DNA of 64,000 nucleotides from Octopus vulgaris (Eukaryota), in NCBI GenBank assembly GCA_951406725.2, contig OX597818.1, forward strand, positions 32,550,001-32,614,000, read 5' to 3'. Position 1 is the first letter of the stretch. The number at the start of each line of letters is the position of its first letter. Positions 27,690 to 60,302 of the stretch are shown here, piece after piece. Both the position numbers and the translations under genes were made by a program. The notes under the pieces are model-generated. The model ran no database searches. It was not told the DNA's origin and saw nothing but the letters and a program-made list of their open reading frames with translations.

Positions 27690-27902
27690 TTCAATATGTG
27701 ACCGCATGTGTATCGTTGGCGATTTTCTTTCTCCGTCTTCTCTTCCTTGGACTTTTTCTTTTTTTCTAGATTTCTGACGAAGAGCTCCGCTCGAAACGTT
27801 AAATCCTCCTTCTTTCTTTCCTTTCCTGAGCGTCCAATAAGACTACACTTGTTCCACGTCCTCACGTTATTGTGTTTTCTCTTTGTTCATTTTTGGATTA
27901 AA
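27690..27902 (+). mobile_element. Penelope-like repeat carrying the HHR, copy 2
   Basis: Shares ctccgtcttc...HHR...cctgagcgtccaataa...gttccacgtcctc...tttggatta with the other copies. Confidence 0.6.
27769..27805 (+). ncRNA. Minimal type-I hammerhead ribozyme motif (Penelope-type)
   Basis: GATTT-CTGACGA-A-GAGC-TCC-GCTC-GAAAC-GTT-AAATC. Stem I GATTT/AAATC, intact core, 4-bp stem II, and a loopless palindromic stem III (AACGTT). Confidence 0.75.
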
Positions 27903-37064: not shown

Positions 37065-37281
37065 ACGTACTTGCATAGCAAGTGACCAGATCTGAGATCG
37101 TGTGCTGAATCAAAAACAATTGCAACGTGGAATGTGTTCATAAGCCATTTAAAAACACACAAAAACCGTTAGATTCGCTTCAGCATTTAAATTTAATTTG
37201 TCAAAGTATTTTCGTCGCTTTGAGACAGCGACCTGATTCACTGACAAAATGCAGCACAGAATTTTGTCAGTGATCTGGTCG
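37065..37281 (-). mobile_element. Second copy of the foldback family; right arm cut short by SINE-A
   Basis: Homologous to the 59.85-60.2 kb element. Centre reads cactgacaaaat-gcagcacaga-attttgtcagtg. Confidence 0.7.
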
Positions 37282-37283
37282 AA

Positions 37284-37503
37284 GGATTGGCTGTGTGGTT
37301 AAGTAGCTTGCTTACCAGCCACATGTTTCCGGGTTCATTCCCACTGCGTGGTACCTTGGGCATGTGTCTTTTACTATAGCCTCGGGCCGACCAAAACCTT
37401 GTGAGTGGATTTGTTAGACAGAAACTGAAAGAAGCCTGTCGTATATATATATATATATATATAAGCATGTGTGTTTATGTTTCTGTCTGTGTTTGCTCCC
37501 CCC
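37284..37503 (+). mobile_element. SINE family A, 5' half
   Basis: Head through the microsatellite. Abuts the foldback element. Confidence 0.85.
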
Positions 37504-37963
37504 ACCTACATTTCTCTATTGGCGAGGAATCTTGAAATAAACTGAATAATGACGTACATGCACACTCTAAATTCATGTGGGTGGTATCTTCAGTTCCGAA
37601 AACTAAATTCTTTTATCACTGAATAATGATATTATTGAAGATGCAAGACATCAACCTACATTTGTGAGTCGCTTCTTTCTCTAAAATGAAAAACTTACTT
37701 GATTTAATCATTAAATCAAAAATTCCTTTAATGAAAACGGAATTAGAATTTCATTAAGTTAGAAAGATAAAAGCTATAAATACAAGCATCAAATATGTTT
37801 AAATTCTGTGAATCCAAATAAGATTATTTTTCTTTGAATTTAAAACTTTTTGTTAAGTTTCCTAATTATAATACCCCAGTTTTTTTACTTGAGTTTTCAA
37901 TGAAACAATGTTAGAATTTGTATACTGTTAGAAGCCACAAAATATTCTATTTATTATATTTTG

Positions 37964-38019
<56 letters not shown>

Positions 38020-38300
38020 TAATTATAATAATGATGATGATGATAACAACTGTAAATGAAGTAAAGAATTTGTGCTTTCTAATTTCAATAAGCTCTCACT
38101 AATTCTCATAAAGTATTTCTACTCCTATTACTTATTTCTACATTCTTCCATTGATCTTTCTTATGTTTCTTGAGAATTTTCTATTCCTATGTCTTAAGAT
38201 ACGTACGTTTATACACACGTCTATTTGCAAACACGTGCTGCAGTCTCGCTTGCATCAGCATGTATGCTACTGTGTTTGTATGTCTGTGCATGGGCATATA

Positions 38301-38538
38301 TGTTTCTTAATTACCCACAAGGGGCTAATGAAAAACATAGAGGGGACAAACAAGGACAGACAAACGGATTAAGACGATTACATCGACCCCAGTGCTTAAC
38401 TGGTACTTAATTTATCGACCCCGAAAAGATGTAAGGCAAAGTCGACCTCGGCGGAATTTGAACTCAGAATGTAACGGCAGACGAAATACGGCTACGCATT
38501 TCGCCCGGCGTGCTAACGGTTCTGCCAGCTCGCCGCCC
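38301..38538 (-). mobile_element. SINE family B, full length
   Basis: TSD tgtgcatgggcatata at 38285-300 and 38539-554. Confidence 0.9.
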
Positions 38539-39264
38539 TGTGCATGGGCATATAGTTTAGAAGATCTCTTCGCAATCTTATAGTTTCGGGTTCATTTCCT
38601 CTTGATTAAATGTCTTCTACCTTTCATGGTACCGCATCTACCAAAGGCTCTAAACTGTATACATGTTCCCAAGCACATGTTTCGGAACTAGTGCTCAAAG
38701 GATATTAATGTACGTACAAAGAATAAACGTGAGCACCGAAGGTTTGTTATCTAAAGCAGCATGATAATTAATAATTGTGCTTATACATTCAATGTGATTT
38801 TGCTTTTGTCATAGGAAATATTTTACACAACACAAGCGCAAGTGTTTAAGTATGTATATCTATATGTAATCACACCCCTCCCCCATACATATATATACTG
38901 AGAAAGAGAGAGCGATAAACAATGTCATGCCTTTTGTAAGTCTGTACAAGTCGACATTTAGTAATGAATTCTTTCCTTGTATTATCGTGTCTTACATAGC
39001 AGAAAATAAACGGCTGCAAGGTAAGACACAGGGAATGCTAAGAGCGAGGGTTCTAAAAATGTCAAAATAATGGAAGGAGATGAAGTGAAAATAAAGTCAG
39101 ACTGCAAAACATATTGTTCTTCTTCAAGAGAATTAAATAAATTATAATCTCTCTGCTTGAAATCAATGGTTGACGTGCTACACGTGATTTTCTCTAATCA
39201 TTCTCTGTCTCTCTCTCTCTTTCCACCTCTCTTTTTTCTTAGCTCTTTTATATGTCATAAATAT

Positions 39265-39284
39265 ACTGAAAGAAGCCCGTCGTA

Positions 39285-39327
<43 letters not shown>

Positions 39328-39530
39328 ATGTATATATGTTTGTGTGTCTGTATTTGTCCCTCCCCCTCCAACGTCGCTTGACAACCGATCCTGGTGTGTT
39401 TGCGTCCCCATAACTTATAGCGGTTGGGCAAAAGAGCCCGATAGAATAAGTACTAGGCTTACAAAGAATAAGTCCTGGGGTCGATTTGCTCGACTACAGG
39501 CGGTCAAATGACTGAAAACAAGTAAAGAAT
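39265..39530 (+). mobile_element. SINE family A, 3' half
   Basis: Runs from actgaaagaagcccgtcg to the tail. Confidence 0.85.
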
Positions 39531-40337
39531 AATCCATTTATTAATCACGAAATATAACATAATTGCAAATACATAAAATGATGTGTGAGCTTGCTGTGAG
39601 GAGCGAGTCTCTGATATTTTGTAGTGCAATCACAACTTTAGAAAACTCTTTCGATTTATCCGCGCTCCCCAAGGAAGCATATTAATTCTTTTCTATAAAG
39701 CTTTACACGTCATCACTGCAAATCACTTCTGATTTCAACATGCTTGTTTCACATATTTTATTTTCGATGGTTCATTTTTTTTTTTTTTTTTGTCGCCAAT
39801 CAGGTTTTCCCATATTTTTTTTTTTTTTACTTAAATTTTTCTTCCTTCATTCTTTTGCGCGACGAGTATCGTAAAAATTTTAACAAACCACAATTTTACA
39901 AGATATTCAAGACACAAAGACATCAATGCAGAATTAGGCTGACACAGTTGTCGTCTTGTCTATATCACAGATTAAAATATACCGTGCTCAAAGACTACTT
40001 AAATGTACCAGTATTTTCTTGTTTAATGATCATTTTTTTAAAATTTCTATCTACACACAACTTATTTTTTCTTGGAATTTTCCTTGCATTATTTGTCAAG
40101 CAAGAGAAAAAAATTCACTGAATTGAGTTGACGCTTGTAATCCTATTCACGAATAGCATTTGATAGAATGTTGTTCTCTTTTTTTCTAAGTTTTGTCTTT
40201 ATTTTCATTTGTCTGGTAAATATTTTCCAGTTTTAGCTGGAGATTTGCGGATTAATATCATTATCCATACATAATACAAAAGAAAGAACACATACGAATA
40301 TTTAAAGGCATACAAACTTTCTCTCTCTCTCTCAAAG

Positions 40338-40376
<39 letters not shown>

Positions 40377-40599
40377 CCGATGTATAAGACCGTTAGTGTT
40401 ATGGGAAGTAAGTGAAAATAAAAAGACTTCAGAAAATATATAAGCTGAAACAACAATGCATCTTTTTTCGACTGTTTTTCAGTGAAAATTTTCTAACATT
40501 TACTAAACAAACGAATGCTTATTTTACTTCATTTTTCTTAACGGCGTTCTTCGCTTTTCCCTTCTGCACGCCCGCGCGCGCGTCTATTTGTACACACTT

Positions 40600-40855
40600 T
40601 TATATATAATACATATGTATGTATGTATTTGTACATATGTATGTATACATGTAGGTATCTGTCTATCTATATATGTGTGTATATATGTATATATATATAT
40701 GGAAATATATATGTATATGTATATATATACATATAAACATATATATATATGGAAATATATATGTATAGGAATATATATACATATATATATATATATGTGT
40801 GTGTATATATATATTTATATATATATATATTTGTGTGTATATGTAAATGTATATA

Positions 40856-40888
<33 letters not shown>

Positions 40889-40938
40889 GCATATGTGTGT
40901 GTGTCTATGCATATATATATATATATATATGCATGTAT
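40600..40938. repeat. TA/TG compound microsatellite
   Basis: Seen directly. Confidence 0.9.
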
Positions 40939-41361
40939 TACAAAATATAAGACAAATTTGTTGTAGTTTCAAACCTTTCACAATGGAGCTTCAAACCATG
41001 TGTGATTACATCTTATTCGCTTTGTACGCAAGAATATAAAGGTAGTTGTCCTGCCGTATTTCAAAATTCGTTGATCAATCAATAGACTCAAGTAGCATTT
41101 CACGTCTCTGCCTACGAAAAGAACTTATAACTAATCAGTATTTAAATCATGCGCAAATTAGAATTCTAGTGCAATGATTAAAAAATTAATGAATTACTAA
41201 TTACAAATAACGTGTTAGAAAACAGAAAGTATATTCACTGCATTTGTTGAACTGAATCGAGTTTAAATTTTGATAGCGAAAGTTTTAAAAAAATATGCGC
41301 CTATCTGCGTTAAATTTATCTACGCTTTTCTGCGATTAAAGTTTTCTGAGAGAAGATATAA

Positions 41362-41541
41362 TCTTTTCTACTCTTGGCACAAGGATCGAAATTTTGGAGG
41401 AGGGGGTGCCAGTCGATTAGATCGACCCCAGTATGCAACTGGTACTTAAATTATCGACCCCGAAAGGATGAAAAGCAACGTCGACCCCGATGGAATTTGA
41501 ACTCAACGTAAAGGCAGACGAAATACCGCAAAGCTTTTCGC
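41362..41541 (-). mobile_element. SINE family B, partial
   Basis: Homology to family B. Confidence 0.8.
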
Positions 41542-41885
41542 TTTGAAAACCTCTCATCATGGAAGCGTCTTCTTACACACACACACACACACACACGTAG
41601 TCACATAAGCTTACATACACATCTTTTTACTGTCAAGTACATCCTCAGTAGTATCCTTTTTTGTCAAGACGGGCTTTGCTTGTTTTTCCTCCTAACTTTG
41701 AAGGCGATGCTCCAGCATGGCCATAACTCAGTGACTGAAACCATTACGAAAAATTAAAGAATATGGAATAAACTGTATTTTCTCACAATTTTTTTACCCC
41801 TTTATCATTTCACCTGTTGTATTGAGTGTCTACGAATCTGTGTTCAAAATTCGCTTACACGTGATTTCTCTCTAATTTTTTTAAG

Positions 41886-42052
41886 GTGGTTAAATAGAAA
41901 CAACATGCCAATTGGTGAAATGGGTATGATTCGAGTGGAAGACAGTACTCTTGTTTTCGAAGATCCAGAAGAAATTGATACAGGCAACTATACATGTATA
42001 ATGAGTAACTCTGCTGGCGAGAAAAAACAAAACATCTGGATCATGATTTCAG
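41886..42052 (+). CDS. PTK7: PTK7-like exon, C-terminal half of ~Ig4: WLNRNNMPIGEMGMIRVEDSTLVFEDPEEIDTGNYTCIMSNSAGEKKQNIWIMIS
   Basis: T-rich tract plus AG at 41884-85 and G/gtaat donor. Ig Trp and DTGNYTC..N.AG motif. 167 nt, phase 2 to 1. Confidence 0.92.
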
Positions 42053-43777
42053 GTAATTACTGATTCCCTTGATTACTCAATGTGAGACGACTTTTGTCCT
42101 TGGGTAGCAACTGTTATTTCCTATTTGCTTACCCCCTAGAAATTATGAAAAATGGCTAATATTTTCTTCAAACTTTGCTTTTTGTTGCATTTATTCAAAC
42201 CCCCAAAGAATCCCCCTTAACACATGTCTTAATGCTCCCCCACCACTACTTCTGCTCGTGATCAGAGATGCACATATCGTCAGCCACTAAGGGACATGCT
42301 CAAATGGTTATGGTCAAGCAACTGATAAACAAATCTGTGGTACTGAGCAGAATGTTTGTTTGCTATAGCGATCTGTCTCAAATGTAATAGAAAACAGGTT
42401 AGTTTCAAACATTGATTTTCCGGTCACAAAAGCAAAGTGTGAAGGATATATGTGAAGGGAATAGTAGTCATTGCCTTTGATATGTTGACAGAACCAAATA
42501 GAAAATAACACTTCTGACCAAAGGCAAAAAAAAAGGGGGGAAAAAACGAAAAATGTTACACAGTGTGATTTTAGCAATAGGAATGCATACTTTTGTTTCT
42601 TTCCTGAGTGAAACACATTGCCTTGAGAAACGAAATATGAACTCTGACTTCTCAACATAAAAAATAACCGTATCTGATGACATATAACATGTTTTTGTTT
42701 TGTTCTTTCCTCTTTTTTTCTACCCTTCAAATGTCACCAAAAATCACTTCGGGTCCTGTATGTGAAAGTTGACCCTCTCCATAAATTTTAATGCACGGAA
42801 AATTTTTTGTTATGGTTAAGCGCTGATGATGTTTTGGCTACATGTAATATGCACGTGTAATTTTTTTTTTCTTGTAGTATCAGCTACGGTAATACCTGAT
42901 CAATTGCTTTTGCTATATGTCACCCTCCATTAGTAATAATAAGAACAATGATGATGATGATCATCATCATCGTCATCTCTAACAAGGTTGCAAATTCAGT
43001 GGATGAACATAGAAGATATTAGCGATCCAAGAAGTTCTTGACAAACATACTTTATCCAGAGTGAAATGCAAAATTGCCCCAGCAGGTTTTGAACTCAGAA
43101 TATAAAGACATTTAGTTAAATACTGATTAGATTTCTTTTCCTGTGTTCTAACGATTCTACCAACCCATCACTCCTATATATTGTCTAACATTGGTATAAG
43201 AACTGTCTGTTTGGGGCGGGGGTGAATGCATAGTCAATTAACCCGGCTCTAGTACTTGGGTTTCTGAAATAGGTACTGAATCGGGAATTTAGGAAAGCCG
43301 ATTATATCGTTAATAAAAATCATAATGATGGTGCTGATAGGGATGATGATGATGACGATGATGATGACGACGACAACGGCGATGATGGCGGCGATGACGA
43401 CGACTATAAAGATGACGATTTCCATCATTGGCAACAAATGGTTAACAAATTTGTTGAACAAGGTTATTAATAAACTAATGATCGTTTGCATTATTAGTGA
43501 TAGTATGGAATGAAAATACACAGTTAGGTTAGTTCATTTGGTATTAGTACATCCTTAATGACGAAAAGAGAAGTCGATTCCATCCGCGACTTGAACACAA
43601 TTTCCGAACATACTGCTAATTGTTCACTAATCCGGTAATTTCTAAATCTACAGCCTGAATCGGTATCTGTCAAGATACTGCAGGTTGAGCTAATTAACAA
43701 GAGACCCGAGATATAGGCACATTGGGAATCCACGTCGCCATTTGTGTCACTTGAGACCATCTTTTAGAATGTAATGT

Positions 43778-44218
43778 GGATCTTTTCCTTTTGAACGGCA
43801 GATGTCAACACAATTTCTAGTTAACTAAACACTTTTAAACTTCGTATACTGGTAGAATGTGTTTATAAAACATCATTTTTTCTTGGCTTTATTGAGAAAA
43901 TTCTATATGTTGTAACATATTTCCACTTTAAAATCGAGCATTTCGGCAATTTTAACCAATCGCTCACCTCCATTTGGGGTGAAAAGATTCCGTGCTGTAT
44001 GAATATGTCCCTTGTTTAAGAAACAGATTGGGTTTATTTACATTTTCGAAGAAAAAAGATACCCTTCCCCCACCCCTAAACCTAACCCCACCCCTTTTAT
44101 TTTCTCGATAAAGCCAAGAAAAATGTTTTATAAACACATTCTACCAGTATACGAAGTTTAAAAGTGTTTAATTAACTAGAAATTGTGTTGACATCTGCCG
44201 TTCAAAAGGAAAAGATCC
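43778..44218. mobile_element. Unclassified MITE with ~120-bp TIRs
   Basis: GGATCTTTTCCTTTTGAACGGCAGATGTCAACAC... at 43778-43900 is mirrored at ~44100-44218. Confidence 0.88.
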
Positions 44219-45241
44219 TGAAAAACATGATCGTGGCGCGGGCACCTTTAATGAAAAAAGTCTGAACGAACGGATCAGATGCTGATTCATAGTGCTGGAA
44301 ATCTGCAACAACGAGAATAAATTGTGAAACATTTTGAAATATTGTAGCAAGCGCTGCCATAAAAAGACAATATTTTTATACTGTTGCGACTGAAACTGTT
44401 ACCATGGCTACAGGTGCTAATGCTGCTATCGCTTCTACTACCGTTGCTGCTGAGTCTGCAGTCGTCGACGGCGTTACTTTTACTAATGCTCTTTTCTTGT
44501 TTGGTTGTCTTTATATCATAATGCTAATATTTTCCAAGGAGAAATGAAGCTGAAAAAGAAATAGGGTTATTAAAAAGTCTTTAATTACTATGGCAAACGA
44601 TGCTTTCAAATCCTAAATGACAGCAATACCTTCTGATAGAAAGAACAGAGGTATGTAGTTACGCATACTAATAGAAATCGATCCACCGAATACGCCTCGA
44701 TAATTGCAATCACTTCTAGCAATGGTTCGGGTAAAACTTTCTCTCTCATGTCCTACACATGTCGATCACTTGCTGCTGACGCTATAGCTGCCTCTTCTAC
44801 TTCCGGCTTCCCTACATTAACGTCTTACTTATTTAATTAGGCGCTTGCTGTTGCCGCCGGCCGTTCTACGAATATCCAAATGACTTGTCTTATCTCTCCT
44901 ACCACCGGATGTAAGAGAAAAATCTGCCGATTAAAACGAATCACATTTTGATGACTGGCAATATCGTACGTTTATTCGACACTGCCGCTGTCTGTTTGAA
45001 GACGTTATTATTTTTAACTTTCAAATATCTCAAGGATAAAGTAAATTAAAATTTACTATAAAGTATTTTATAAATAGTTATGATTTGCATAAATGACAAG
45101 CAGAGGCTAGTATTTTTAAGGCAAAGAGTGATGGGAGGTGACAGATGTGAAACTAATGGCTGGATTTTAAGAAAAAATTGAACACCAATACGTTTGAAAT
45201 TATATGAAATATTTTGTTGAATATTCAAAAATATTTCTTAT

Positions 45242-45805
45242 ATCTTTATTGCCCACAAGGGGCTAAACACAGAGAAGACAGACAAAGGGATTAAGTCGAT
45301 TACATCAACCCCAGTGCGTAACTGGTACTTAATTTATCGACCCCGGGAGGATGAAAGGTAAAGACGACTTCGGCGGAATTTGAACTCCGAACGTAACGGC
45401 AGACGAAATACCTATTTCTATTTCTTTACTACCCACAAGGGGCTAAACACAGAGAGGACGAACAAAGACAGACAAACGGATTAAGTCGGTTATATCGACC
45501 CCAGTGCGTAACTGGTACTTATTTAATCGACCCAGAAAGGATGAAAGGCAAACGTAACAGTTGACGAAATACATATTTTTTTACTACCCACAAGGGGCTA
45601 AACACAGAGGGGACAAACAAGGACAGACATAGGTATTAAGTCGATTACATCGACCCCAGTGCGTAACTGGTACTTAATTTATCGACCACGAAAGGATGAA
45701 AGGTAAAGTCGAACTCGGCGGAATTTGAACTCACAACGTAACGCAGACGAAATACAGCTACACATTTCGCCCGGCGTGCTAACGTTTCTGCCAGCTCGCC
45801 GCCTT
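45242..45805 (-). mobile_element. SINE family B trimer (one head plus three tandem bodies)
   Basis: Three cccacaaggggctaaacacagag...gacgaaatac units, with a single head at ~45755-45805. Confidence 0.9.
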
Positions 45806-46267
45806 AAAATTTTCTAAATATATACAATCACGCATGTAGTTCTTGGTCTAATGCAGTGTATTCTTATCATTTTGAGCATTTTGAAATACAGCGTGTGATT
45901 CAGACTGTAAACTTCAAATGTACTCATAAACATTATTTATAAAAATAGCAGTTTCTTAATCATATCCACCTGAGTACTATGTAGGCATCTAATTAGTTTC
46001 TTTCATTAGTTGGACAAGGACTGATATTTTCATGGTTTTATATTTGTATCTTTAAATAGCATAATTTGTTTTAAATAATGTAGACAAAGAATTGATAATG
46101 ATGATTTTCCACCAATAAACAAATCAATTTCCCTAAAAATACATAATTTCGAAAGGTTGGTGGGGTGGAGGTTATCACAAAGTCCATGTACAGTTTCGTG
46201 TTCCCCAATCAGTGTGTAAGTATTTTGTTTTATGTAATATAATTTTATATTTTATTATTCATTTCAG

Positions 46268-46407
46268 TTCCACCAATCATCACCAAAGTTCCCCAGCCAC
46301 GCACAGTTAGCGAAGACATGAGTGTTAGCTTCTCATGCAAAGTAATTGCAACTCCGTACCCAGTGACCACAATATTTTGGACGCGAAATGATGTCCCTAT
46401 CGATCCG
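46268..46407 (+). CDS. PTK7: PTK7-like exon, N-terminal half of ~Ig5: (V)PPIITKVPQPRTVSEDMSVSFSCKVIATPYPVTTIFWTRNDVPIDP
   Basis: tttcag acceptor and gtaagt donor. I-set pattern PP.I...P....V......F.C.....P.....W..N. 140 nt, phase 1 to 0. Confidence 0.92.
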
Positions 46408-46684
46408 GTAAGTTTGTACCCACCGTTCTCTTCTATATTAAGCTATAGGTTGAGGGAACAATAAGGAAAGAAAATAAAATTCTGTGTAAAAGCCACAGGC
46501 TCACCTTTAGGAAATGGGAGCAATCAATTCATTTATCTACTTCAGAGGGATGGATAGATTTGGACTCTAGAAGGTACACAAAATATCCCAAAAGTTTTAA
46601 GTAATATTTCAGTATTTTCTAACAAGTTCATAGGTTTTAGAAAGGGAGTATAATCGATTGCTTTGACACCATTACGTGACTAGT

Positions 46685-46922
46685 ATTTTTTTATCTTTAC
46701 TACCCACAAAGGGCTAAACACAGAGGGGGCAAACAAGGACAGACACACAGATCAAGTCGATTACATCGACCCCAGTGCGTAACTGGTACTTAATTTATCG
46801 ACCCCGAAAGGATGAAAGGCAAAGTCGACCTCGGCGGAATTTGAACTCAGAACGTAACGGTAGACGAGATACGGCTACCCATTTCGCCCGGCGTGCTAAC
46901 GATTCTGCCAGCTCGCCGCCTT
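46685..46922 (-). mobile_element. SINE family B, full length
   Basis: 13-bp TSD TTACGTGACTAGT at 46672-84 and 46923-35. Confidence 0.9.
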
Positions 46923-47034
46923 TTACGTGACTAGTGTTTATTATATCAACGCAACAACGATGAAAGATAACTAACCCCTGCAAACCATTGTTTTTGCCGC
47001 GTTACCGATGGTTATATCCATTTTCCTGACAATT

Positions 47035-47215
47035 GTTTCTGATTTGGGGACAAAGCCAACCATGTTGAGAGGTAGGATTAGTTCTTACCGTCGACACCAG
47101 TACTTGACTAGTACTTTATTTCATCGACCCTAGAGGAATGAAAGGGAAAATTGATCTCTGGAATTTAAACTCAGAAAGTAAATATCTGGAAGCACTGACG
47201 ATTCTGCCAGCTCGA
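47035..47215 (-). mobile_element. SINE family B (diverged)
   Basis: Homology to family B. Confidence 0.65.
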
Positions 47216-47579
47216 AGTGCCGCCACTTGGCTTGAAATATTGGCGGACGAGTGAGTCAATTACATAGTTTTACTAATTGGCATATACTTTATTTTACCGA
47301 CCTTGAAAAGATGTAAGACAAATTACTGGAACAAATACCTTGAGGTATTTTTCTGACAATTCTTTAAACGCTAAATATAGACTTTAGGATACTTAAGATA
47401 CAGCCAGGTAAGAAATGCATATATGGAGGCCTACGAACGAGCATCGATGTGTCACTTGGTATGTTAGAAATTAAAGCCAACAGTCCCACAAATCACTCCA
47501 GTCCGTCTTAAATTTGATGTGCTAGTTATGGCTGGGAAGGAGTTAACCATAGTTTTCTTGATTGACATATGGCTAAATA

Positions 47580-47623
<44 letters not shown>

Positions 47624-47654
47624 ACACACATACACACACACATATATACATATT

Positions 47655-47885
47655 CTTTTATTGTTTTTATTTTTTTACTTGTTTCAGTCATTTGACTGCG
47701 GCCATGCTGGAGCACCGCCTGTAGTCGGACAAATCAACCCCAGAACTTATTCTTTGCAAGCGTAGCACTTATTCTATCGGTCTCTTTTGCCGAACCGCTA
47801 AGTTTCGGGGACGTAAACACACTAACATTGGTCGTCAAGCGATAGCCGGAAGGGGCATAGACACACAAATGCACACAAACATATA
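47655..47885 (-). mobile_element. SINE family A, 3' half
   Basis: Reverse complement of the family A tail. Confidence 0.85.
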
Positions 47886-47984
47886 CACACGCACGCGCAC
47901 ACACACACACACACACACATATATGTATATATATGTATATATATATATATATACGTATATGTATGTATATATATATACGCATGC

Positions 47985-48040
<56 letters not shown>

Positions 48041-49449
48041 ATACGCACACGTATAAAGCAGTTTCTAAAATTTCAAAGAAATCACCCGGCTTTTTTTATC
48101 TTATTGTACCGACGCGCGAATACAAGGAGGAAAAAATCCTCGATTTACATGAAATTATTTTAAATTAATTCCCTAAGAAAACAGAACCTATCGGGTAATA
48201 GTCTCAATTTCAAATCAATTATGTCAAAGAGAGTTCGTGTTGTAACTTAATTTGTACATATCTCGATTTCTGTTTATCGTGTGAACCACAACGAAATGTA
48301 AAATGTAAATTTCTGTCTTAGACGCGATTAAATATCGCACGTTCAACCTCTTCTATTCCAAATATATATTTAAACAGCTTGCTTCGTGAAACATGAATAT
48401 CTTTATACCTAGTACATTCAGTTCAAGATTGCATACCATGTGATATAACACATTCCGTATTACGCCTAAATTAGATATGGCTGTTATTTAAGAATCGTTT
48501 TTAAATTAAATTTTATTATGTATTGTAAGCTTTTTGTTCTTGTTCCATGGGAATGGTTTCATGGTTTTGCTGCTGTTGTTGTTTTCCTTGTTCTTTATCC
48601 TATTTAATGTGGGATTTTTTTATGTTTAATGTTTTTTTAACGTTTTTTTTTTTTTTGTGTGTTTTTATGTGGTCCTCTCTTTGCGGGAATGCAGCTTAAT
48701 CAAAGTTCTCCGTTTCTGTCAATAAGTCCAAGTTTGCATAATAAGGGATCAGTTTTATTTTCTGCGTCGAAAAATACATTTCCTCTCCTAAATATGCCTG
48801 GTTACACATCTGGCCCTTATATAGTCAGTGGTATTTAGGTCGAAATAATAGTACCATAATAACAGATGATGACGAATGACGATGATAATGATAATGATGG
48901 TGATGGATGATGATGATGACGACGATGATGATAATGGTGGTGGCGGCGGTGGCGGTGGTGGTGGTAATAATTGCGCTAAGGATGACAGTGATGAGGGCTG
49001 ATGGAGTTGTTATTCTTGGCAGTCGTAATAGCCGTGACAGTTAAGATGATGCGATAAGTTTTGGGACGGCCAGAAACGAAGAGAACTGAATTCTTTATCG
49101 GTTATTCGGTTTAGTGCCTTGCTATTTTGAGTTCGACTCCTGCTGGGGACTTAGTTTGTCTTTCTGAGTCAGTTAAATGGTGACTAGACACCGCTTTTAT
49201 CGCAGTCAATAAAATTACTAGTAAGCACCAATTACCAGGGTTTTTCAATAGATTTCTATCGAACCTGATATTATGTTTGGTATTTATTTTATCGACATTT
49301 TAAAAATAGAGATCAGGGGGCACTGAAAGATAACGTCGACGGAATATAAATGTCACGGACTACGCATTTTAGGTGAAGGGGTGCAATGAGATTATATCCC
49401 ATTCCTGGATTGGAATTGATTTCATGTAATTTCAACATAAATAAATAGA

Positions 49450-49504
<55 letters not shown>

Positions 49505-49545
49505 TAATAATAATAATAATAATGATAATAATAATAATAATCATA

Positions 49546-49710
49546 ATCCTTTCTACTATCGGCGCAAGGGCTCAAATTTTGGGGCAGGTGGGGTTAGTCG
49601 TTTACATTGACCCAGTGAGTAACTGGTACTTATTTCATTGATCCCGGAAGGATGAAAGGCAAAGTCGACCTCGGCGGAGTTTGAACTCAGATCGTAAAGA
49701 CAGACGAATA
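49546..49710 (-). mobile_element. SINE family B, partial, next to an (AAT)n tract
   Basis: Homology to family B. The (AAT)n tract at 49453-49545 lies on the tail side. Confidence 0.8.
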
Positions 49711-50836
49711 ATAAAAATAATAAAAATGTAGTTCACCATTCTCATTCTTAATTCACCATTCTTATACTTATTAGGCTTTGCTAATGAAAAAAGAAAACCC
49801 AGAAAATTCTTTTAATATATGGTTCAATAAATATGCGGTTCAATAAAAATGCCTAGTTTTTCTGCTACCTATCTGCAAAGCACATATTTCTCCATCAGAA
49901 CTGCCCTAAGAAACTACACGACAATAACAATAACAATAACAACTATAATTGTTGTTCTTGTTAAGGTTGAGTCGAGAATAGAATCTGCAACTGACAATAT
50001 GAAACAAATACATTCCTTGCTTGATATTTGCAAGTTTTACTGATCCCCCCTCACAACCCCCCGTTTTCATTATACTTTCATTATACTTTTATAACGTGCT
50101 GAGAACTTTCGCACATATCATGGAACCTGATCTTAGATAGCTTTACGCTATCTATATAACTTCATCTTTTTAAACTAGACCCCTTACAGATTAAGTTTAA
50201 TATTCATCAAGATCGCAGTTCAATGACTGAAAATAGTTCTCTCTCTCCCGCCTTTTCTCTCCTTCTCTCTCTCTCTCACTCACTCACTCATACACACACT
50301 CTCACACACACGCACTCCAGAGATAATGTAGGATATCCGAATCGGAAATAAAATACGGAATTGTGACACATTCATATTCGATGGTTATTCATCAGTGACG
50401 AATCTGTTACAACCAGAAATCACACACTGAGTCACACATAGATTCAAAATCAAACTCTCTCTCTATCTCTCTATGCATTCATTTACACTTTATTTGTCTT
50501 TTGACATTGAAATATACTTCAGTAGTCGATACCAGAAAGATATGGGTCCAATGTTATATACCTCTAGTTTTAAATAAATATCTGAGTAATGAAACAATAA
50601 CACGAAATACATATTGCACACATGACCACTCGATCGACTAGAAATAACAGTAAAATTTCACTCGAACCACACTCATTCGTCTTAAATATGGATGGAGGTA
50701 TGTCAAATTAAAATCTAATTCTGGGATACAGGCATGAAAAAAAGTATTATCATGGTTCAGTCACTTTGTCAGCCCAGTCAGGACAGATCTCGCTAAGACT
50801 AAAACAACAGCAACATCAATAACAACCAACAAGAGG

Positions 50837-50914
<78 letters not shown>

Positions 50915-51211
50915 TAAAAGTTAAAAAAAACACAAACTGGGACAAGAACGTGAAACATTTTGAAGACGGCAAAAAAACACACAGACGGGACTTTCGAAGC
51001 TCTCAGTCATCAGTCAAGAACCAGATCATCTTCGCAATTTCGGCTGTATACACATACAAAATGGGACAAGAACGCAAAACATCCGGACAGTTAGGTGATA
51101 AAAAAATGGGACATCAAAACATCCAGATGGACGATACAAAGAAAAAACAAGGACGGGTCATTCGAAGTTTTCTTTCCTCAGTCAAGTACCAGATTATCTT
51201 CGCAATTTCGG

Positions 51212-51305
<94 letters not shown>

Positions 51306-51421
51306 CCTTCTTCATCTTCCTTTGTGGTACCTCTTCTACTTTACTAAAGGCACTCTAAATCTTTTGTAATACTGTTGTATTACGATAACATCGGCCTAAG
51401 TGTATTTCTCATACTATCCAT

Positions 51422-51474
<53 letters not shown>

Positions 51475-52469
51475 CGGCGAAAGCGAACGAGCATTCGCAC
51501 ACAATTAAACATAATTTTGAAGAAAGTGTGAAATATAAAATACAGAAAAAAAAAATCAACAAATAAACGATAAAATAAGAGAAGAAAACTGACAAAACAG
51601 TGTATAAAAATACAAACAAAAACAGGCACAAAAGTAGTAACCAATAACGATAACAAGTGTCTGAACGTGTGAAAATGTGCGCGTGTATGTACGTTGTAAG
51701 ACTGGTGGGAAGGGAGAAGGTATTACAATAAAGAGATAACTGTAGCTTTTATTGAAGTCTCCACACACACACGCTCCTCTATAAGCCTCATAGAAATAAT
51801 TAAGCTGTACAATGACTACAAAATAAGCATCATAAAACTGTCAAGAAAGGGAAGCGAGATGCTGTTAAATCCTTTTAAAGATCTCTTACTCATTTCTCTC
51901 TGTGGATCGGTCCGTTAGGTCTTTCATTAGAAAGGTTTGGTTGGCTGGCTGGTTGGTTGGTTGGTTGGTTGGTTGGTTGGTTGGTTGGTTGGGTGGTAGG
52001 AGTGACGAAGAAAATGAAAGGCAGATAATATCTTCTTGCTCTCACACATGAAATGTATTATTTGTAATGCCTACCAAGTTTTTATTGTGTAATTTTTCAT
52101 TTTGTTCGTCGTGTGGTGTGAATGCGTGTACATACATGTGTGTAGCTACAAACACACACATATTTCCCTCCATATATACACGTCTTATGCATGTATGTAT
52201 GTATGTATATATGAACGTAGGTATGTATGTATGTATATATGTATGTAGGCAGGTAGGTAGGCTTAGGGTATGTATGTATGCATGTATGTATATACGTATG
52301 TGTGTATGTATGTATGTAGGCTTGTGTAGATTTCTGTATGTATACATGTATGCAGCCTTGTGTACATGTAGGCGTGTATATCCTTACATACATACACATT
52401 AAATGCACACTCAAATATATATAGCATAAATTAATGCAAATATACAAATTTATTTCGAGTACATGCGTA

Positions 52470-52521
<52 letters not shown>

Positions 52522-52882
52522 TATGTATGCGTATATGTATGTGTGTGAGTGCGCGTATTTATATGTCTGTGTCTATCTGATTTATCGAATGTATACATTA
52601 TTCCCTACCAAATATACATTTTTCATCCTCAAATTATACACATGCCTGTTTACATACGTACATTCATATATATATATATATATACATATATACATGCGCA
52701 ACTATGTACGGACGCGTTAGAATGGTGCATGTTGGTATATTTCTCATGACTGAACATTGCGGCTGTTTCAGTGCGTTCACCTAATTCCACGCTTGAGTTA
52801 GTTAAAGTGATAGGAACACAAATTATGGCGTCAGCTGTGATATAAAGGACAGAATTGTATCGCATGGTCGCTGTAGTTAGGA

Positions 52883-52925
<43 letters not shown>

Positions 52926-55900
52926 GTTTTATGTGAACAGTAAACAGTTTCATGAATTCATCTTTACTGATGTAAGTAATTCTCAGAACGCTTTGTTTTT
53001 GTTTTTTTTTTAAACATTTGATATGTTGGAAAGTGTTAATTCAATTTTCGTATTTATGCATTTTAATTTTGTTTACTGGGTCGCCCCTGCTGGTTCTAGT
53101 TCCTGGTCGATTCTGATCAGGTATACCTATAACCAAAGTTATTTTAAACAGTTGAGTATAAGTTAAGGGAAATTCAGCTAATGTTGCCTCATATTGTTTG
53201 TGGTTGTTTGCAAAATTTCGTCTTTGCTGCATGAGATTTTCCCCATGTGAGAATTAGAGTCCAACGCTGCATGTCGACCAGGCACAAATTATGGTGTTTA
53301 TACCGCCATCAGCAATGAAATTAAACTCCGTTTGAATCTGCAACGGAGTCTGTACAGTGTCACTCGATCTACTAAAATTAACGACCAAATCTCTCGAATT
53401 ATATTCTACATGTTATATGGAAAATAGTAAAGGCACTTTGAATAACATAATTACAGATTTATTAAATCACAGAATAGTTATGAATGGAAGGCTTTAGATC
53501 ATCTGTGTACTCGATTAGGGATAACATTTCACTACACAAGAATGACACCAATCTATTTTTTGTACTGATGTTATTTGTTGTAATGAACAGTTTGAATTGT
53601 TTTGCACTCCTAGCTTATATTACTGAAGTTATATTTAACTTATTGTTTCATTGTTGCCGATGTGGCGGTTTTATTGCATCTGTTGCTGTTGTTGCATAAT
53701 GTAAATTATCTTGTCATCTGCCTGAAGGTTATACATGCAAATCGTTGAACTGAAAAGATATAATTAAATGCTGCAAATGGTTTCCAGCTTAAGACTCTAT
53801 TGTCAAACAATTTAGCAAAGTCTTTAAAGTATCCATAGAAGTCGAAAAATTCAAATAGGTATTTTTAAAAAGAAAAAATAATAAGACGTTTCAACGGAGC
53901 AAACTGGCAAATTTAAACAAATGATGACTGTGGACTCCGAGGATGGGTCACAGTTCGAGGATGGGTTACAGTTCAAGACTGACAATTTTATTTTCTGTAT
54001 ATACTAGGATAGATAAAATTAAAACAATGGGGAACGACGGGAATGTGAAGTGAATATTTTGACCGTGTCAAACATATGTTGCACAACACGTAGGAAGGAA
54101 TCACTAACGTCAGCCAGTAAAATCGCACAATTTCCATTATCTAACAGACGAGACACCAATGTATCACAATAAGCAACTAAACTTTACAACGAAAGCATAG
54201 TTGATGTAGTAAAACTGTACAACTCTACATCCTTCCCAAATGCTGCACACTTGTCAGGAACACTATGGTATACTTAACGGTGCCGAGGAACTGGCAATAA
54301 ACTGTTGAAACCATGATGATGATGATGTATCATTTTGTAAATTTTGTCACAAAATTTATGAATGGATGATATTACAAAGGAAAATTGCATAAACAGTTGG
54401 GTAGATGTAGAGAAAACTATTTGAACATATAAAAGCTACAGAAATGCTATATCCCAGCGCCTTCAGAAATCCCTAGGGGCTCTTCATCACTTTAGCGAAT
54501 GCCTTCTTCCAACCAAAATTATATTCAGATCGATGCTATCCAGCTACACAGGACTCCATATTCTCACGCATCTTTTATCAAAGTCGTGGAAAAATAATTC
54601 TTCATTTTTTGCCTCTGTTCTCCTGTTCTAGTGGGTGTGCATATGAATAGTTCAGTGAAAGATTGGTTGAGCTGAAGAGGGAAGCGTCTGTCTTGATTCC
54701 GTGCTATCTTGTTTATCACACGACATTTCTGCCACAAATATCAAACTGAAAACTGCGGGCCCTTCTGTTTAATGAAAATCGGCGACCGGTCTTTACGGTA
54801 GAGTCGGCTGACAGATACATTTTGTCAAGTATTCGATAAAAAATGTTAGATATAAGTAATATGTCAGCAATGTTTGAACACAAATGAGTGCATGCAGAAC
54901 GGTTGTCGTCCACCATCGGTTTTATTCCTGGTCATTCCTGATCAAGTATACATATAACTAAAGTCCTACCACAACTATGTTGGCAGAGAACGAAGCCGTA
55001 TTTGTGAAAAGCTCTCACGAACTCGGAAAGCCTTTGTAGCAATACCAGGCTAAGAACTTTTGAAATTTACCCGGAATCCCTGATCTCAGCCTTCCAGAAA
55101 AAAAAATATTCGGGTAGCTCACGTTGACGCCCAGAAATTTTGTCAGATCATTATCACTTATACTCTCAAATAAACTTCTTTAGGACCCTAGCGTAGACGT
55201 TTCACTGACTGCACCACCTTGTCTGAAGAGTGCAGCGAGCACTTGCCAATATTGCAGTATTACGTGCTTTAACTCATTCTGAGTTTGGCCCACAACTGTA
55301 ACTTAATCGAAGCTGTAGAAAGATGTGTCGCACAAACGGAGGAACATATCAATTAACTGTCAGCGTAACCAAATAATAACTATAGACGGCGCCGTCTCAG
55401 TGCATGAATGCGAATCATTTGCCACAAGATATCGAAACCCTTCTTGACTAGGGTTTGAGAGAGTTGCCGAAAAGTGAATGAGGGCAGCAAGTATGACCAT
55501 GATGAATTGGTATACTCTAAGTTTCAAGCTAGAGAACTCAAGAGAGTGATGAGATTTAACTTTTGAAGCAAGAATAACCCCGGACTCTGCAGAGTTCCAT
55601 GATTGATCCTATGTATGATTTTCACCTGTTTGGAAATTTCATTATGAAAATTTCTATAAAGTCTTTCTTTCCCTCATGTGTAATTTCACAGAGTGAATCC
55701 AATGTAAGCCCTTATCATTTTCTAAGTATTCCTTCTAATATTTTTTCTTGCTTGTCACCATTGTGGAAAATAGAAAAGTAGTAGTAGTAGTAGTAGTAGT
55801 AGTATCCAGCAAGAACTGCAACAAAAGTAACCACAACTAAAACCGCATAAGTAGCCCAGTTTCTTGAATGGGAGTGTAAAAGAAGACCAATTATCTCCCC

Positions 55901-56159
55901 CCAGTTATGTAAACAGCGTTTTATCTTCTCCTCTTTAGAAACTATTATTTCTTCTGCTGTTAGTCAAAACAGGCGAGACGGCGCCAACAATAGGCTGGAA
56001 ACATTTCCACATAGATTGGGTCGGCCTTTTACAAAGACCCTTATTTCAACTGGGCTTTTATCAGGTAAACTTAGATGTCATCTCTGCTTCATTGAATATT
56101 CTCCACCTCTTGTGTCCAGGGACTCTTTGTATTTAGTCTCCAAATAAATACAGAAAAAG

Positions 56160-56190
<31 letters not shown>

Positions 56191-56675
56191 TATGTAATGG
56201 TTCTAAATATACATCGCCATCTGTGTGTATCCGGTGGTGATAGCGGTAGTAGTCGTGATCGTAGCAGCAGTGGAAGTAAAAAACCAACATCGTCAGTAGC
56301 AGAAAGTAACAAGAAATGAAAATAGCAATTTGTTAATATTTAAGCGTATATGTTAATATTCGTGTCCGAATATATACGCTTGGATATGCGTGTGTGTATA
56401 CCTATACACTACTGTTGATTACATCCCCACCTCTCTTTCTCTCTCTCTCACATACAAACATACTCACCCACATGCGTGTAACAAAGTTTTTCGAAGAAAT
56501 TCTTGACTCCGAAGAAAGATTTTTAAAAATTATAAAATATTAATCGTATGAAGTAATTTTTAAAAAAATTATGACAAACCTTATTGAAGGAAGATTTTTA
56601 TTTGTGTTAAGTGCTTAACAACACAAAACTTTCTTTCATAAGGTTTGTGTCTTTCTGTTCATTTTTACTACATAC

Positions 56676-56995
56676 CACAACCATATGGTTCCGAGTTCAA
56701 TCCCACTACGTCGCACATTGAGAAAGTGTCTTCCACTATAGTCACGGGCTGACCAAAGCCTTGTGTGAGGATTTGATAGACGGAAACTGAAAGAAGCTTG
56801 TCGTGTGTGTGTATTTGTCTCACCATCACCGCTTGACAACTGGTGTTGGTGTCTTTACGTCCTCTTAACAGTTCAGCAAAAGAGACTGAGAGAGAATATG
56901 TAATAGGCTTTAAAGAATAAATCCTGGAGTCGATTTATTCGACTAAAACTGTTCACGGGCCGCAGTCAAATGACTGAAACAAGTAAAAGAATAAA
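56676..56995 (+). mobile_element. SINE family A (diverged)
   Basis: Homology to 17870-18285. Confidence 0.8.
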
Positions 56996-57009
56996 AAATG
57001 TATATATAT

Positions 57010-57225
57010 AAAGTTAATCCAAACATGAAAACACAAAGAGAAAACACAACAACGCGAGGACGTGGAACAAATATAGTGTTATTGAACGCTCAGGAAGGAA
57101 GGGAAGAAGGAGGGTTTTACGTTTCGAGCGGAGCTCTTCGTCAGAAATACAGGAAAAGGAAAGATCCAGAGAAGGGAAGACGGAGGAAAAAAATCGCCAA
57201 CGGTACACACGCGGTCACATTTTGA
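57010..57225 (-). mobile_element. Penelope-like repeat carrying the HHR, copy 3
   Basis: Reverse complement of the 27.7-kb copy. Confidence 0.6.
57114..57147 (-). ncRNA. Minimal hammerhead ribozyme motif, same family
   Basis: Minus strand reads TTT-CTGACGA-A-GAGCTCCGCTC-GAAAC-GTA-AAA. Confidence 0.7.
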
Positions 57226-58847
57226 ATGACCGGAAGGAAATGGGTGAAGAAAAGTTCTATACATACATATCCTACCGTAGTGATCACAACGAAGGCCATG
57301 CCGAGGCCATTTTATGTCGCCCTTGTGTTTTTCTGTATACGTAGCATACATAGCCTCTTAATTGGCGAAGCATTGAAGTGGTGAAGTGGCCTACTTTGGT
57401 TGTAGTCTTTTGGTCAGTGACTTATTAACATATTCCCAATGAACTCGATATTGGAATGAACCTCGCGAGTTGTATAAAAAGAATTGGTGGTCTGCTGAAT
57501 TGCAATTTACCTAATGTGAATCTAATGTTGCATTCATTTGAAAAATTCAAATCTGATATGAATTAATATAACCCGAGCACCACCAATCGGTTGTAAATTC
57601 TAATTTAGGTCAACAAAAGATTCCTTCAATCTGCTAGAAAGGGAAGATACAGTCTTGAAAACTGGGCTCGGCAAAGGATGTGGTCCGAAACATGATGTCA
57701 GACATAAAGATGTGACATTCACAAGCGAAACATTTTTCGTTATAGGAATGTTCTCTCAAGGCCGAACTAGAGATAAAATGGAACCAATTTGGAATTTATT
57801 TACCTATTGATTTATTTATTCATTACCAAAAACCTTATACTTGATACTCTACTACAAATAATTAACAACAAACATTGCAATCCTAACCTGAATAAATAAT
57901 AGCATTACAGTGCCGCATACAACATAATTGGAGAAACAAACAAAGCAAAAATAAAGCAAAAGAATGATCTGTAATCATAAAACATTCCCAGCTAATTTGA
58001 TAAGGAACAGCAGTTATCACGTGATATATCCCCAATCCGACTTTTGGCCTGAATCTCACTACGAGAAAACTCGCATTTAGCTTCATTACATAGATTCAGT
58101 ATAAACTTCAGCTGAGACTCTTCCTGGTCGAGTTGTGTTATTGACTTACACAAACGGAACAGACACGTACACAACCCTCACCACAAGGCATAAACCTTCT
58201 CCTCTTCTCACTCATTCACTCTCTCTCTCTTTCTCTCACGCTTTCCATCTCTCTTTCTCATGTGCTTCTGTGTACTCTTTACATTCACGTAGATCTAGAT
58301 AGATGCACCTGTGCAGAGATAGATCTTGTGCGGCTATATCGTTTCCAGATAAGATATCGAAGCTTGTGATGCTTGCATTCACTGACTACAAGTCTAACGA
58401 TTTCGCAAAACATTATCTGTCACAGTTCCATCCCCACATCTTCATTTCTTCTATTGCCTCTTTTGAAATAATCCTTCGTTCTAAGTCTACGCTTCTCACA
58501 CACCATATCTCTCTTTCATTCTGCTTTTCTCCTTTTTTTTCTCCCTTTTTTTTTCTTTTTTCCTACTTACTCTACAATAATCAGTAAGTTGATAATCTCC
58601 TCCTGTACGTACATCTAAATACATGTATATATGTGTAAACGTATGTATGTATGTGTGTGTGTGTGTGTGTGCGCGCGCGCGCGCGTGTATCACTATCTGT
58701 CTGTCTGAGTATGTATGTGTGTATGTATGCATGCTTATTTGCGTGTATGCAAATATACCAGATATATATGTGTGTGTGTATGTGAGTGTCTATGTGTGGC
58801 TGTAAGAAAAAAGTTGTCTTTTAAACAAGTGTTTCACTTTACAAATA

Positions 58848-59105
58848 TTGGCTTGGTGCATAATTATTGCGGCTTTTTTTTTTTCAACAAATGTTATTCA
58901 ACAAGAACAATAACAACATTTAACAAAAACAACTCTAAATGAGATTATTCCGGAGCATATTCGCCATCTACTTCAATTCCTGCTTCCCATTTGCTTGGCA
59001 GACGGTGAGGCCGTCATTTAAAGATGTTTTTGTTTGATGTTGTTATTGTTTTTGTTGAATAAAATTTGTTGAAAAAAAAGCCGCAATGATTATGCACCAA
59101 CTCAA
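58848..59105 (-). mobile_element. Mariner-derived MITE with a transposase C-terminal remnant
   Basis: TA followed by the mariner-type TIR TTGGCTTGGTGCATAATTATTGCGGC, with ~90-bp arms. Minus strand 59010-58945 encodes PHRLPSKWEAGIEVDGEYAPE*. Confidence 0.82.
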
Positions 59106-59853
59106 AATGTTTTAACTTACACATATTGTAAGCTATTCAATCTTCAAAGAATAAATACATTCGAATTTCAGTCGTCTTGTAATTATTTCGTGGTCGCTGC
59201 ATAGACAGAAACATGTGTTCTCGTAATGAATTGTGAAATTTAGTGAATTCTTGAGTCTCGAGATTAACTCTCCCTCTCGCAAGGACAAGGGGAGATAATA
59301 CATATTAATTTTTTCCACACTTTCTTTTATCACATCTTTTCCTCCCCAACTTCTACCCCTCTCGTTTCGTCTATTCCTACACTTCCTCCTCTCTGTCCAA
59401 CCTTTTCTTTTCCTCTCCTTCACTCTTTGCCTTTCTCTTTAACCCCCATTACCCGTCCTCCCCCTTTCTTTCTCTCTCTCTCCGGCTCTCCATCCCGCTT
59501 CTAATTTTATCCAATGCCTGATGCAATGCGCGGTCATATATAGTGATACACTTACAAACAATTTAAATAATTAACAATAATTAACTTCAGTTTACTTTCG
59601 TCCTTTTCCTCATCTCTTCTTGATAGGAACCAGCAATATCATTGTTTCAAAATAACCATTGCTTAATTATTGTCTTTGAAATTATATGACGAAAACAAGT
59701 ACATGCATAGTAATATATATAACATACACTTGTGCATAGGAAATAGAGGTGTGACATCTGTAGGGTCGCTCAGCCTACTAAATGTACCTCAAATTACATT
59801 TTTCCTTTGTATAAAGGAAAGGCATTTTGAATAATAGATTCCAAGATATAGAA

Positions 59854-60202
59854 AACAATTGCAACGTGGAAGGTGTTTATAAGCCATTTAAGAATCACAC
59901 AAAACCGTTAGATTCACTTCAACATTTAAATTTAATTTGACAAAATATTTTCGTCGCTTTGAGACCGCGACCTCTTCACTGACAAAACTTCGTACTGAGA
60001 TGCAGTAGGAATTTTTGTCAGTGAAGAGGTCACGGTCTCAAAGCGACAAAAATATTTTGACACATTAAATTTAAATGAAATGAATCTAACGGTTTTGTGT
60101 GTTTCTTAAATGGCTTATAAACACCTTCCACGCTGCAATTGTTTTCGTTCCAGCACACGATCTCAGATCAAGTCACTCGCTATGCAAGTACATCTCCGTA
60201 AA
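59854..60202. mobile_element. Foldback (palindromic) retro-insertion, probably Penelope-like, with hammerhead-like motifs
   Basis: Inverted arms of ~135 bp at 59851-59987 and 60013-60146. Flanked by an 11-bp direct repeat AAGATATAGAA (59843-53, 60203-13). Confidence 0.7.
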
Positions 60203-60302
60203 AAGATATAGAATGTTTCGAAAGAAACGTTCTGGATGGTCATGATTAGAAATCCCTTAATCATACACAGGATCTGCTGAATAATAGATGACATGAGGTT
60301 AA

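Follow-up and report, generated by a model that had tools for sequence, protein, structure and literature searches.

Two copies of a foldback repeat lie in the second half of the window, the 64,000-nucleotide stretch of the Octopus vulgaris genome that we analysed (contig OX597818.1, positions 32,550,001 to 32,614,000), and their arms carry, whole or in part, a motif with the topology of a hammerhead ribozyme in which position 3 is G. The arms belong to a Penelope-like element (PLE). Sequence comparison gives good support to the motif being a naturally occurring variant, with G3:C8, of the minimal hammerhead known from Penelope elements, and to its fixation in an octopus element that is active. 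The four arms were found where the first-pass annotation of this DNA had placed them, and their letters are as it had quoted them. The features of the two copies are as follows, where pLTR stands for pseudo-long-terminal repeat, ORF for open reading frame and RT for reverse transcriptase.

37067..37249, minus strand: tailed arm of copy 1 (3' part of the pLTR and start of the ORF; L031), spanning arm positions 13-200 and sharing 87.5% identity across 184 nt with the arm at 60.0 kb
37197..37248, minus strand: hammerhead-like motif of copy 1, with stems I and II intact, G3, and a one-base insertion relative to the family profile
37262..37281, plus strand: inverted arm of copy 1, start only, with G3, U7, C8 and U9, cut short
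37283..37445, plus strand: repeat breaking into the inverted arm of copy 1, which we take to resemble a short interspersed element (SINE), with 9 more window matches at 81-90%
59843..59853, plus strand: left target-site duplication of copy 2, 11 nt, an exact repeat of 60203-60213
59852..59987, minus strand: untailed inverted arm of copy 2 (L001), with its motif at 59936-59986 and G3:G8
59988..60012, no strand assigned: head-to-head junction of copy 2, copy-specific and different across 30 aligned copies, containing the clustered 5' end of the arms
60013..60202, plus strand: tailed arm of copy 2, with its motif at 60014-60063, G3:G8 and G12A
60110..60202, plus strand: first 31 codons of the element ORF, up to the tail; the identical peptide start continues into the RT ORF in locus L228
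60203..60213, plus strand: right target-site duplication of copy 2, an exact repeat of 59843..59853

A compensated G3:C8 core had been proposed for the family of these arms, and only a part of this holds within the window. All four arms do have G3, but none has an intact G3:C8 core, because of an insertion in the 37.2 kb arm, U9 in the arm at 37270, and G3:G8 in both arms of copy 2. In the arm at 37196-37250, nine bases separate stems I and II (GUGAAUCA-G) as against eight in the family (GUGAACA-G), and a C falls at position 8 only if the one-base insertion is disregarded. The arm at 37270 combines C8 with U9 and is interrupted by the SINE-like repeat, and the right-hand member of the two G3:G8 arms at 59.9-60.1 kb additionally has G12A. 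The full hammerhead core consensus is thus absent from the four window arms. The canonical minimal hammerheads with which the arms had been compared are present at 27774 (plus strand) and 57144 (minus strand); these have C3:G8 and are of another repeat family. Apart from the ORF start within the arms, no pieces of the element ORF were found in the window. Among the 150 of 283 Rfam matches to the window that were listed, there were only microRNA models, driven by microsatellites, and neither the hammerhead nor the canonical minimal motifs appeared among them; the output of a general repeat search of the window was likewise dominated by microsatellites. The SINE-like repeat, at 37283-37445 and at the nine other window places, is of a family that ends at (TA)n.

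At the level of the family, the proposed core was borne out, including the extra base before stem II. The genome searched, G000, contains a 100% match to a protein that NCBI attributes to Octopus vulgaris. A first look at it by DNA search gave 3,973 candidates. An exact 35-nt pattern then had 1,182 genomic matches compared with 0 for the reversed control, and the family therefore extends far beyond chance. Position 3 is G in 1,144 of these matches; the remaining 38 were counted by hand as 20 A, 12 T and 6 C, and none of them has G8, so that there is no C3:G8 among them. Using an exact 22-nt pattern, position 8 is C in 5,534 of 5,858 G3 matches, and the first 100 listed of the 324 exceptions comprise 42 G, 41 T and 17 A (hand count). 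The family consensus, GUGAACA-G, accordingly has G3 and C8 in place of the C3 and G8 that a hammerhead literally requires. In older arms picked by BLAST (n=116) the states at positions 3 and 8 are G-C (101), G-T (7), G-G (6) and T-C (2), which gives a Watson-Crick pair in 101/116 old arms, and in 26/26 young ones. The remainder of the core is the usual one, with U4 G5 A6, A9, G12 A13 A14, A15.1-U16.1 and H17 prevailing among the old (n=118) and the young (n=26) arms. GUGAACA-G and both stems are retained in all 26 arms of the young subfamily while loop II has diverged: 0/43 core and stem positions changed, against 5/9 loop II positions (P 5e-5, although the loop change may be a single event). 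These are counts of copies and not of independent events, and they are inflated by a larger amplified repeat with one passenger foldback, which we observed at L181, L182 and 26/90 pattern-picked loci. The arm was found, whole or in part, in 21 of the 24 sequencing runs that were listed, which come from 11 studies, and is therefore not an assembly artefact.

The arms are the pLTR end and ORF start of an autonomous PLE encoding an RT and, at the C terminus, a GIY-YIG endonuclease, because the last 31 codons of the arm run on into the ORF in L228. The linkage to a Penelope-like RT/GIY-YIG ORF, which had been suggested as a check, was thus found, and in the copies retrieved with the GIY-YIG ORF region the arm lies downstream in sense with an inverted arm upstream. 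Upstream of some solo arms the sequence continues, first with a stretch like a splice acceptor and then with a region of microsatellites, and in one case it reaches the end of the GIY-YIG ORF. In the younger subfamily there is an open frame of 1,025 aa with a YVDD RT motif and a CX3CxxC linker. Pfam GIY-YIG (PF01541) matched residues 915-1005 of this frame at 25.4 bits (cut-off 22.6); Pfam RVT_1 gave no match to it, and the RT assignment is based on motifs and homologues. The earlier view of the foldbacks as a family of their own is not supported; foldbacks, solo arms and ORF-length copies are all products of one element. A Pfam GIY-YIG search of the genome returned other families, with the motif in 0/30 loci and a distal arm piece in one (L089), whose apparent ORF continuation of the arm was rejected when it proved to be a different repeat.

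We compared this element with described PLEs, here and below using the examined parts of the sources cited. Like Neptune and Nematis, two clades with a C-terminal endonuclease (Craig et al. 2021, PMC8557442), it has a CX3CxxC linker before GIY-YIG, a (TA)n bias, an inverted truncated copy and a tail confined to one end. The linker spacing looks Nematis-like by eye only. About 70 extra residues were noted between RT motifs 3 and 4 in the L217 ORF (G000:C25:44301470-44304545, minus strand) and its homologues P0003-P0022, where this span is 132 aa, in contrast to 63 aa in another, Neptune-like family from this genome; an insertion in the fingers has been described mainly for N-terminal-endonuclease elements and telomerases (PMC8557442). 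Similarities are also found with PAc, the Poseidon element of Anolis (Frangieh et al. 2024, PMC11167929), in which the motif adjoins the ORF start, targets are AT-rich, two RT start sites inside the ORF define the tail, and both strands are cut and extended. The PAc ORF begins inside the motif, however, whereas that of the octopus element begins about 50 nt downstream, and the tail is 30-40 nt in PAc and about 60 nt here.

The motif itself resembles the minimal type I hammerheads of Penelope elements (Cervera and de la Pena 2014, PMC4209133) in its location in the pLTR, the extra base between positions 9 and 10.1, the G10.1-C11.1 pair, the palindromic loopless stem III and the occurrence of opposite-strand pairs 100-700 bp apart. 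A natural covariation at 3:8, U3-A8, is known in that group, and U3-A8 is also the covariant named by Perreault et al. 2011 (PMC3088659) among natural variants of the core; the octopus family differs by G3:C8. In PAc the pair is C3:G8, and G3:C8 is known there as an engineered rescue (PMC11167929). Nine GUGA strings occur in one of the two supplement files of PMC4209133, none of them a hammerhead core, and there are none in the examined part of the supplement to Craig et al. 2021. The non-LTR retrozymes (bioRxiv 10.64898/2026.07.22.740005) are similar to the octopus arms in being short and non-coding, in deriving from the pLTRs of PLEs and in having type I hammerheads, but they are direct tandem repeats, whereas the octopus foldbacks are twin truncations in inverted orientation and show no sign of a source element of their own.

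Only engineered cases of a G3:C8 core were found in the literature searched, a scope that did not include Lunse et al. 2017, reportedly a survey of Penelope hammerhead variants, so that a prior description is possible.

The homology of the motif to hammerheads could be followed through sister families in the same genome. A pattern in which 3:8 was set to C3:G8 and the beginning of stem II was kept had 1,895 genomic matches versus 21 for the control, and these are sister families adjoining related endonuclease ORFs. In the closest sister motif (L333) the core of stem I, the extra G and the beginning of stem II are identical, and its conserved core departs from the G3:C8 one only at positions 3 and 8. 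Covariation of the stems and of 3:8, another of the suggested checks, was evident against these families: when 14 natural copies from about five lineages were aligned, 91% of cells were paired, 5/10 pairs had changed on both sides and 3:8 was paired in 14/14, the covariation scores being inflated by the relatedness of the copies. In an endonuclease tree, built with fragmentary rows, the G3:C8 copies group together (99), as do the C3:G8 copies (100), and the two are joined at 76 against five outside proteins. A first metagenome scan recovered no relative. Among 31 related metagenome loci subsequently recovered, 9 have the motif, of which 7 are C3:G8, 2 are U3:A8 and 0 are G3:C8, in a scan that accepted only paired 3:8 states; those that are close relatives and have a motif are L389 (C3:G8) and L393 (U3:A8). 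In viral contigs, a narrow G3:C8 pattern gave 13 matches compared with 29 for an unpaired control, and 0/13 passed a simple stem I filter, which gives no confirmation of a G3:C8 core in phages. Judged from these alignments, the 3:8 pair covaries, being C3:G8 in the sisters, U3:A8 in a relative in another organism and G3:C8 here. Because the sister families, L389 and other relatives are C3:G8 or U3:A8, G3:C8 is most likely a derived state from a single event. We also observed a very active 781-aa Neptune-like family (L067-L090, L345, L346) with a U3:A8 minimal hammerhead, and a young sister family (L327-L332, L337, L341, L343) with a 1,312-aa frame and A9C in its hammerhead core, the older relatives of which have A9.

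Of the 64 non-passenger loci, 34 are foldbacks with two arms, 29 have a single arm in the sequence retrieved, and 1 is complex. The outer ends of 27 of the 34 foldbacks lie near arm positions 146 and 205, giving one short and one long end; there was 1 short-short pair, 0 long-long, and 6 with damaged ends. The same rule was found in 10/10 two-ended long insertions (L217-L236). Inner ends, in contrast, are variable, and the junctions differ from copy to copy. Exact flanking duplications of at least 6 nt were present at 90/104 foldbacks (49 non-microsatellite, with a mode of 12 nt), a count made without a shuffled control. The foldbacks are twin 5'-truncated insertions, with one tailed arm, one untailed arm and a target duplication. 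Inverted 5'-truncated copies with a tail at one end only are described for PLE insertions (PMC8557442), and PAc is described as having two internal RT start sites and as cutting and extending both strands (PMC11167929). From the short-plus-long end rule we infer two priming events per insertion, one per site. The protein would make a nick in each strand of AT-rich DNA, the two spaced by about 12 nt, and each nick would prime reverse transcription at one of two ORF-start sites, approximately +32 and +92 nt from the ATG, yielding one untailed and one tailed arm. The two cDNAs would halt close to the 5' end of the RNA, immediately upstream of the motif, or before reaching that point, and would then be joined head to head. 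A short 5' part of the RNA would give the 350-bp foldback, and a read-through RNA would give ORF-length arms.

As to one or two RNA templates per foldback, 63 variants are shared by arms against 6.4 by chance, yet they are often discordant (at site 60, 11 in both arms and 8 in one). With regard to a cap-G or splice origin, G stands at the clustered 5' end in 19/32 cases, some of which may derive from the opposite arm. Short internal repeats of the 5' half of the motif in L143 suggest that template jumps took place repeatedly close to the 5' end of the RNA. Convergent pairs spaced by 2.7 kb proved to be the larger repeat with its one passenger foldback. It had also been suggested that the foldback might self-cleave as a dimer. 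The palindromic stem III is indeed suited to dimers, but the foldback is not a source of them, its arms being sense and antisense; a transcript across it is predicted to form one hairpin of about 145 bp at -206.6 kcal/mol. Because opposite-strand arms pair with each other, the foldbacks are products and not ribozyme dimers.

Does the motif cut? We favour, with a probability of about 0.58, the reading that this pLTR motif, G3:C8 in nearly all copies, is a minimal type I hammerhead capable of slow self-cleavage, assisted by a second sense copy or by the element protein. In the active fold, G3:C8 would stand in for C3:G8, and stem III, a perfect AAUAUU palindrome, would form between two sense copies, as in tandem pLTR-ORF-pLTR transcripts. 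The cut, which would fall after UUU some 55 nt ahead of the ATG, would shorten read-through transcripts and be dispensable for each insertion. Stems I and II have predicted pairing probabilities of 0.7-1.0 in the context of a young copy, with stem I at about 0.5 in an old one. An engineered C3G/G8C change partially rescues a Penelope hammerhead (PMC11167929), and such a rescue occurs in hammerheads generally (PMC8495972). Position 17 is U rather than C, and a G3-C17 pair is therefore avoided; a G3-C8 variant was less active with C17 than with G17 (PMC3884650, as data not shown there).

Several observations weigh against this reading. The 5' truncation points are scattered, and only 1/27 foldback partner arms ends at the cut site (position 58). 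The predicted fold pairs G3 with U17, in competition with G3:C8, the stem III duplex is weak (predicted -0.2 kcal/mol for 6 bp), and cleavage of PAc is dispensable for insertion in vitro (PMC11167929). The conservation of core and stems compared with that of the downstream arm (0/43 versus 8/138 changed) is not significant (P 0.2), and the swap is one evolutionary event whatever the copy number. A9C is found in all 8 motifs seen in L327-L332, and since that sister family is active, transposition can occur with a damaged core. There is also an excess of G3:G8 copies, at about 136/5,858 (extrapolated from the 42 among the first 100 listed) compared with 6/1,182 for the same type of mutation at position 3 (P about 7e-6). 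Genome-wide, C8-to-G is about 4.6 times commoner than G3-to-C, on several subfamily backgrounds. This excess may come from exchange with C3:G8 sister RNAs, from minor sources or from a hot spot; a sublineage marker for the G8 copies was looked for and none was found.

Much of this would also fit a hammerhead descendant without a useful cutting rate, in which the swap was fixed when the pair still mattered, or by drift, and the stems are now kept for protein binding or for folding at the 5' end of the RNA. The active A9C family, the G3:G8 excess, the UUU site and the G3.U17 competition can all be read in this way, as can the low in vitro activity of minimal Penelope hammerheads (PMC4209133) and the fact that copies contain the whole motif and upstream bases, so that their templates were uncut. 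We nevertheless hold this to be somewhat improbable, given a reciprocal change precisely at 3 and 8 with the remaining core kept in old and young subfamilies, and three Watson-Crick 3:8 states in one clade. It is quite unlikely that G3 and C8 were fixed for some other reason, such as splice-acceptor-like AG sites, with their pairing a coincidence. Both changes do lie in or create YAG motifs (UUUUGUCAG ends at G3, and AACAG contains C8), and Penelope pLTR introns end near helix I (PMC4209133). However, some 20 nt upstream there is a better acceptor that has a branch-point-like sequence, a pyrimidine tract and an AG kept in both subfamilies, and it is there, not at G3 or position 10, that the 5' ends of solo arms and foldbacks cluster. 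As for a self-contained DNA transposon or miniature inverted-repeat transposable element (MITE) with hammerhead topology by chance, the long inverted repeats and the identical ends of the 26/90 loci speak for it, but those identical-ended copies travel inside the larger repeat, junctions are copy-specific, arms are 5'-truncated at many points, and the linkage of the arms to the RT ORF refutes it; we regard it as extremely improbable.

In PLEs the hammerhead cuts poorly in vitro and may be a passenger (PMC4209133, PMC8557442, PMC11167929). A reciprocal swap in an active lineage, beside sisters with the usual core and with A9C, provides a comparison set for selection on cleavage. More tentatively, and here we are doubtful, the octopus core would be active, the first natural G3:C8 case in high copy number in an animal, and the C:G, U:A and G:C states in one Penelope clade would reflect selection for cleavage in vivo. 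As had been anticipated, motif searches by CUGANGA would miss this family, and UUGANAA descriptors would also miss it, with more than 5,500 exact copies here; if an active and selected G3:C8 core is confirmed, then G3:C8 ribozyme families would have been systematically overlooked in eukaryotic genomes. The short-plus-long end rule bears on the insertion mechanism of Penelope-like retroelements, and if our interpretation of it is true, two-ended target-primed reverse transcription would have left a record across the genome in the form of the one-tailed foldbacks.

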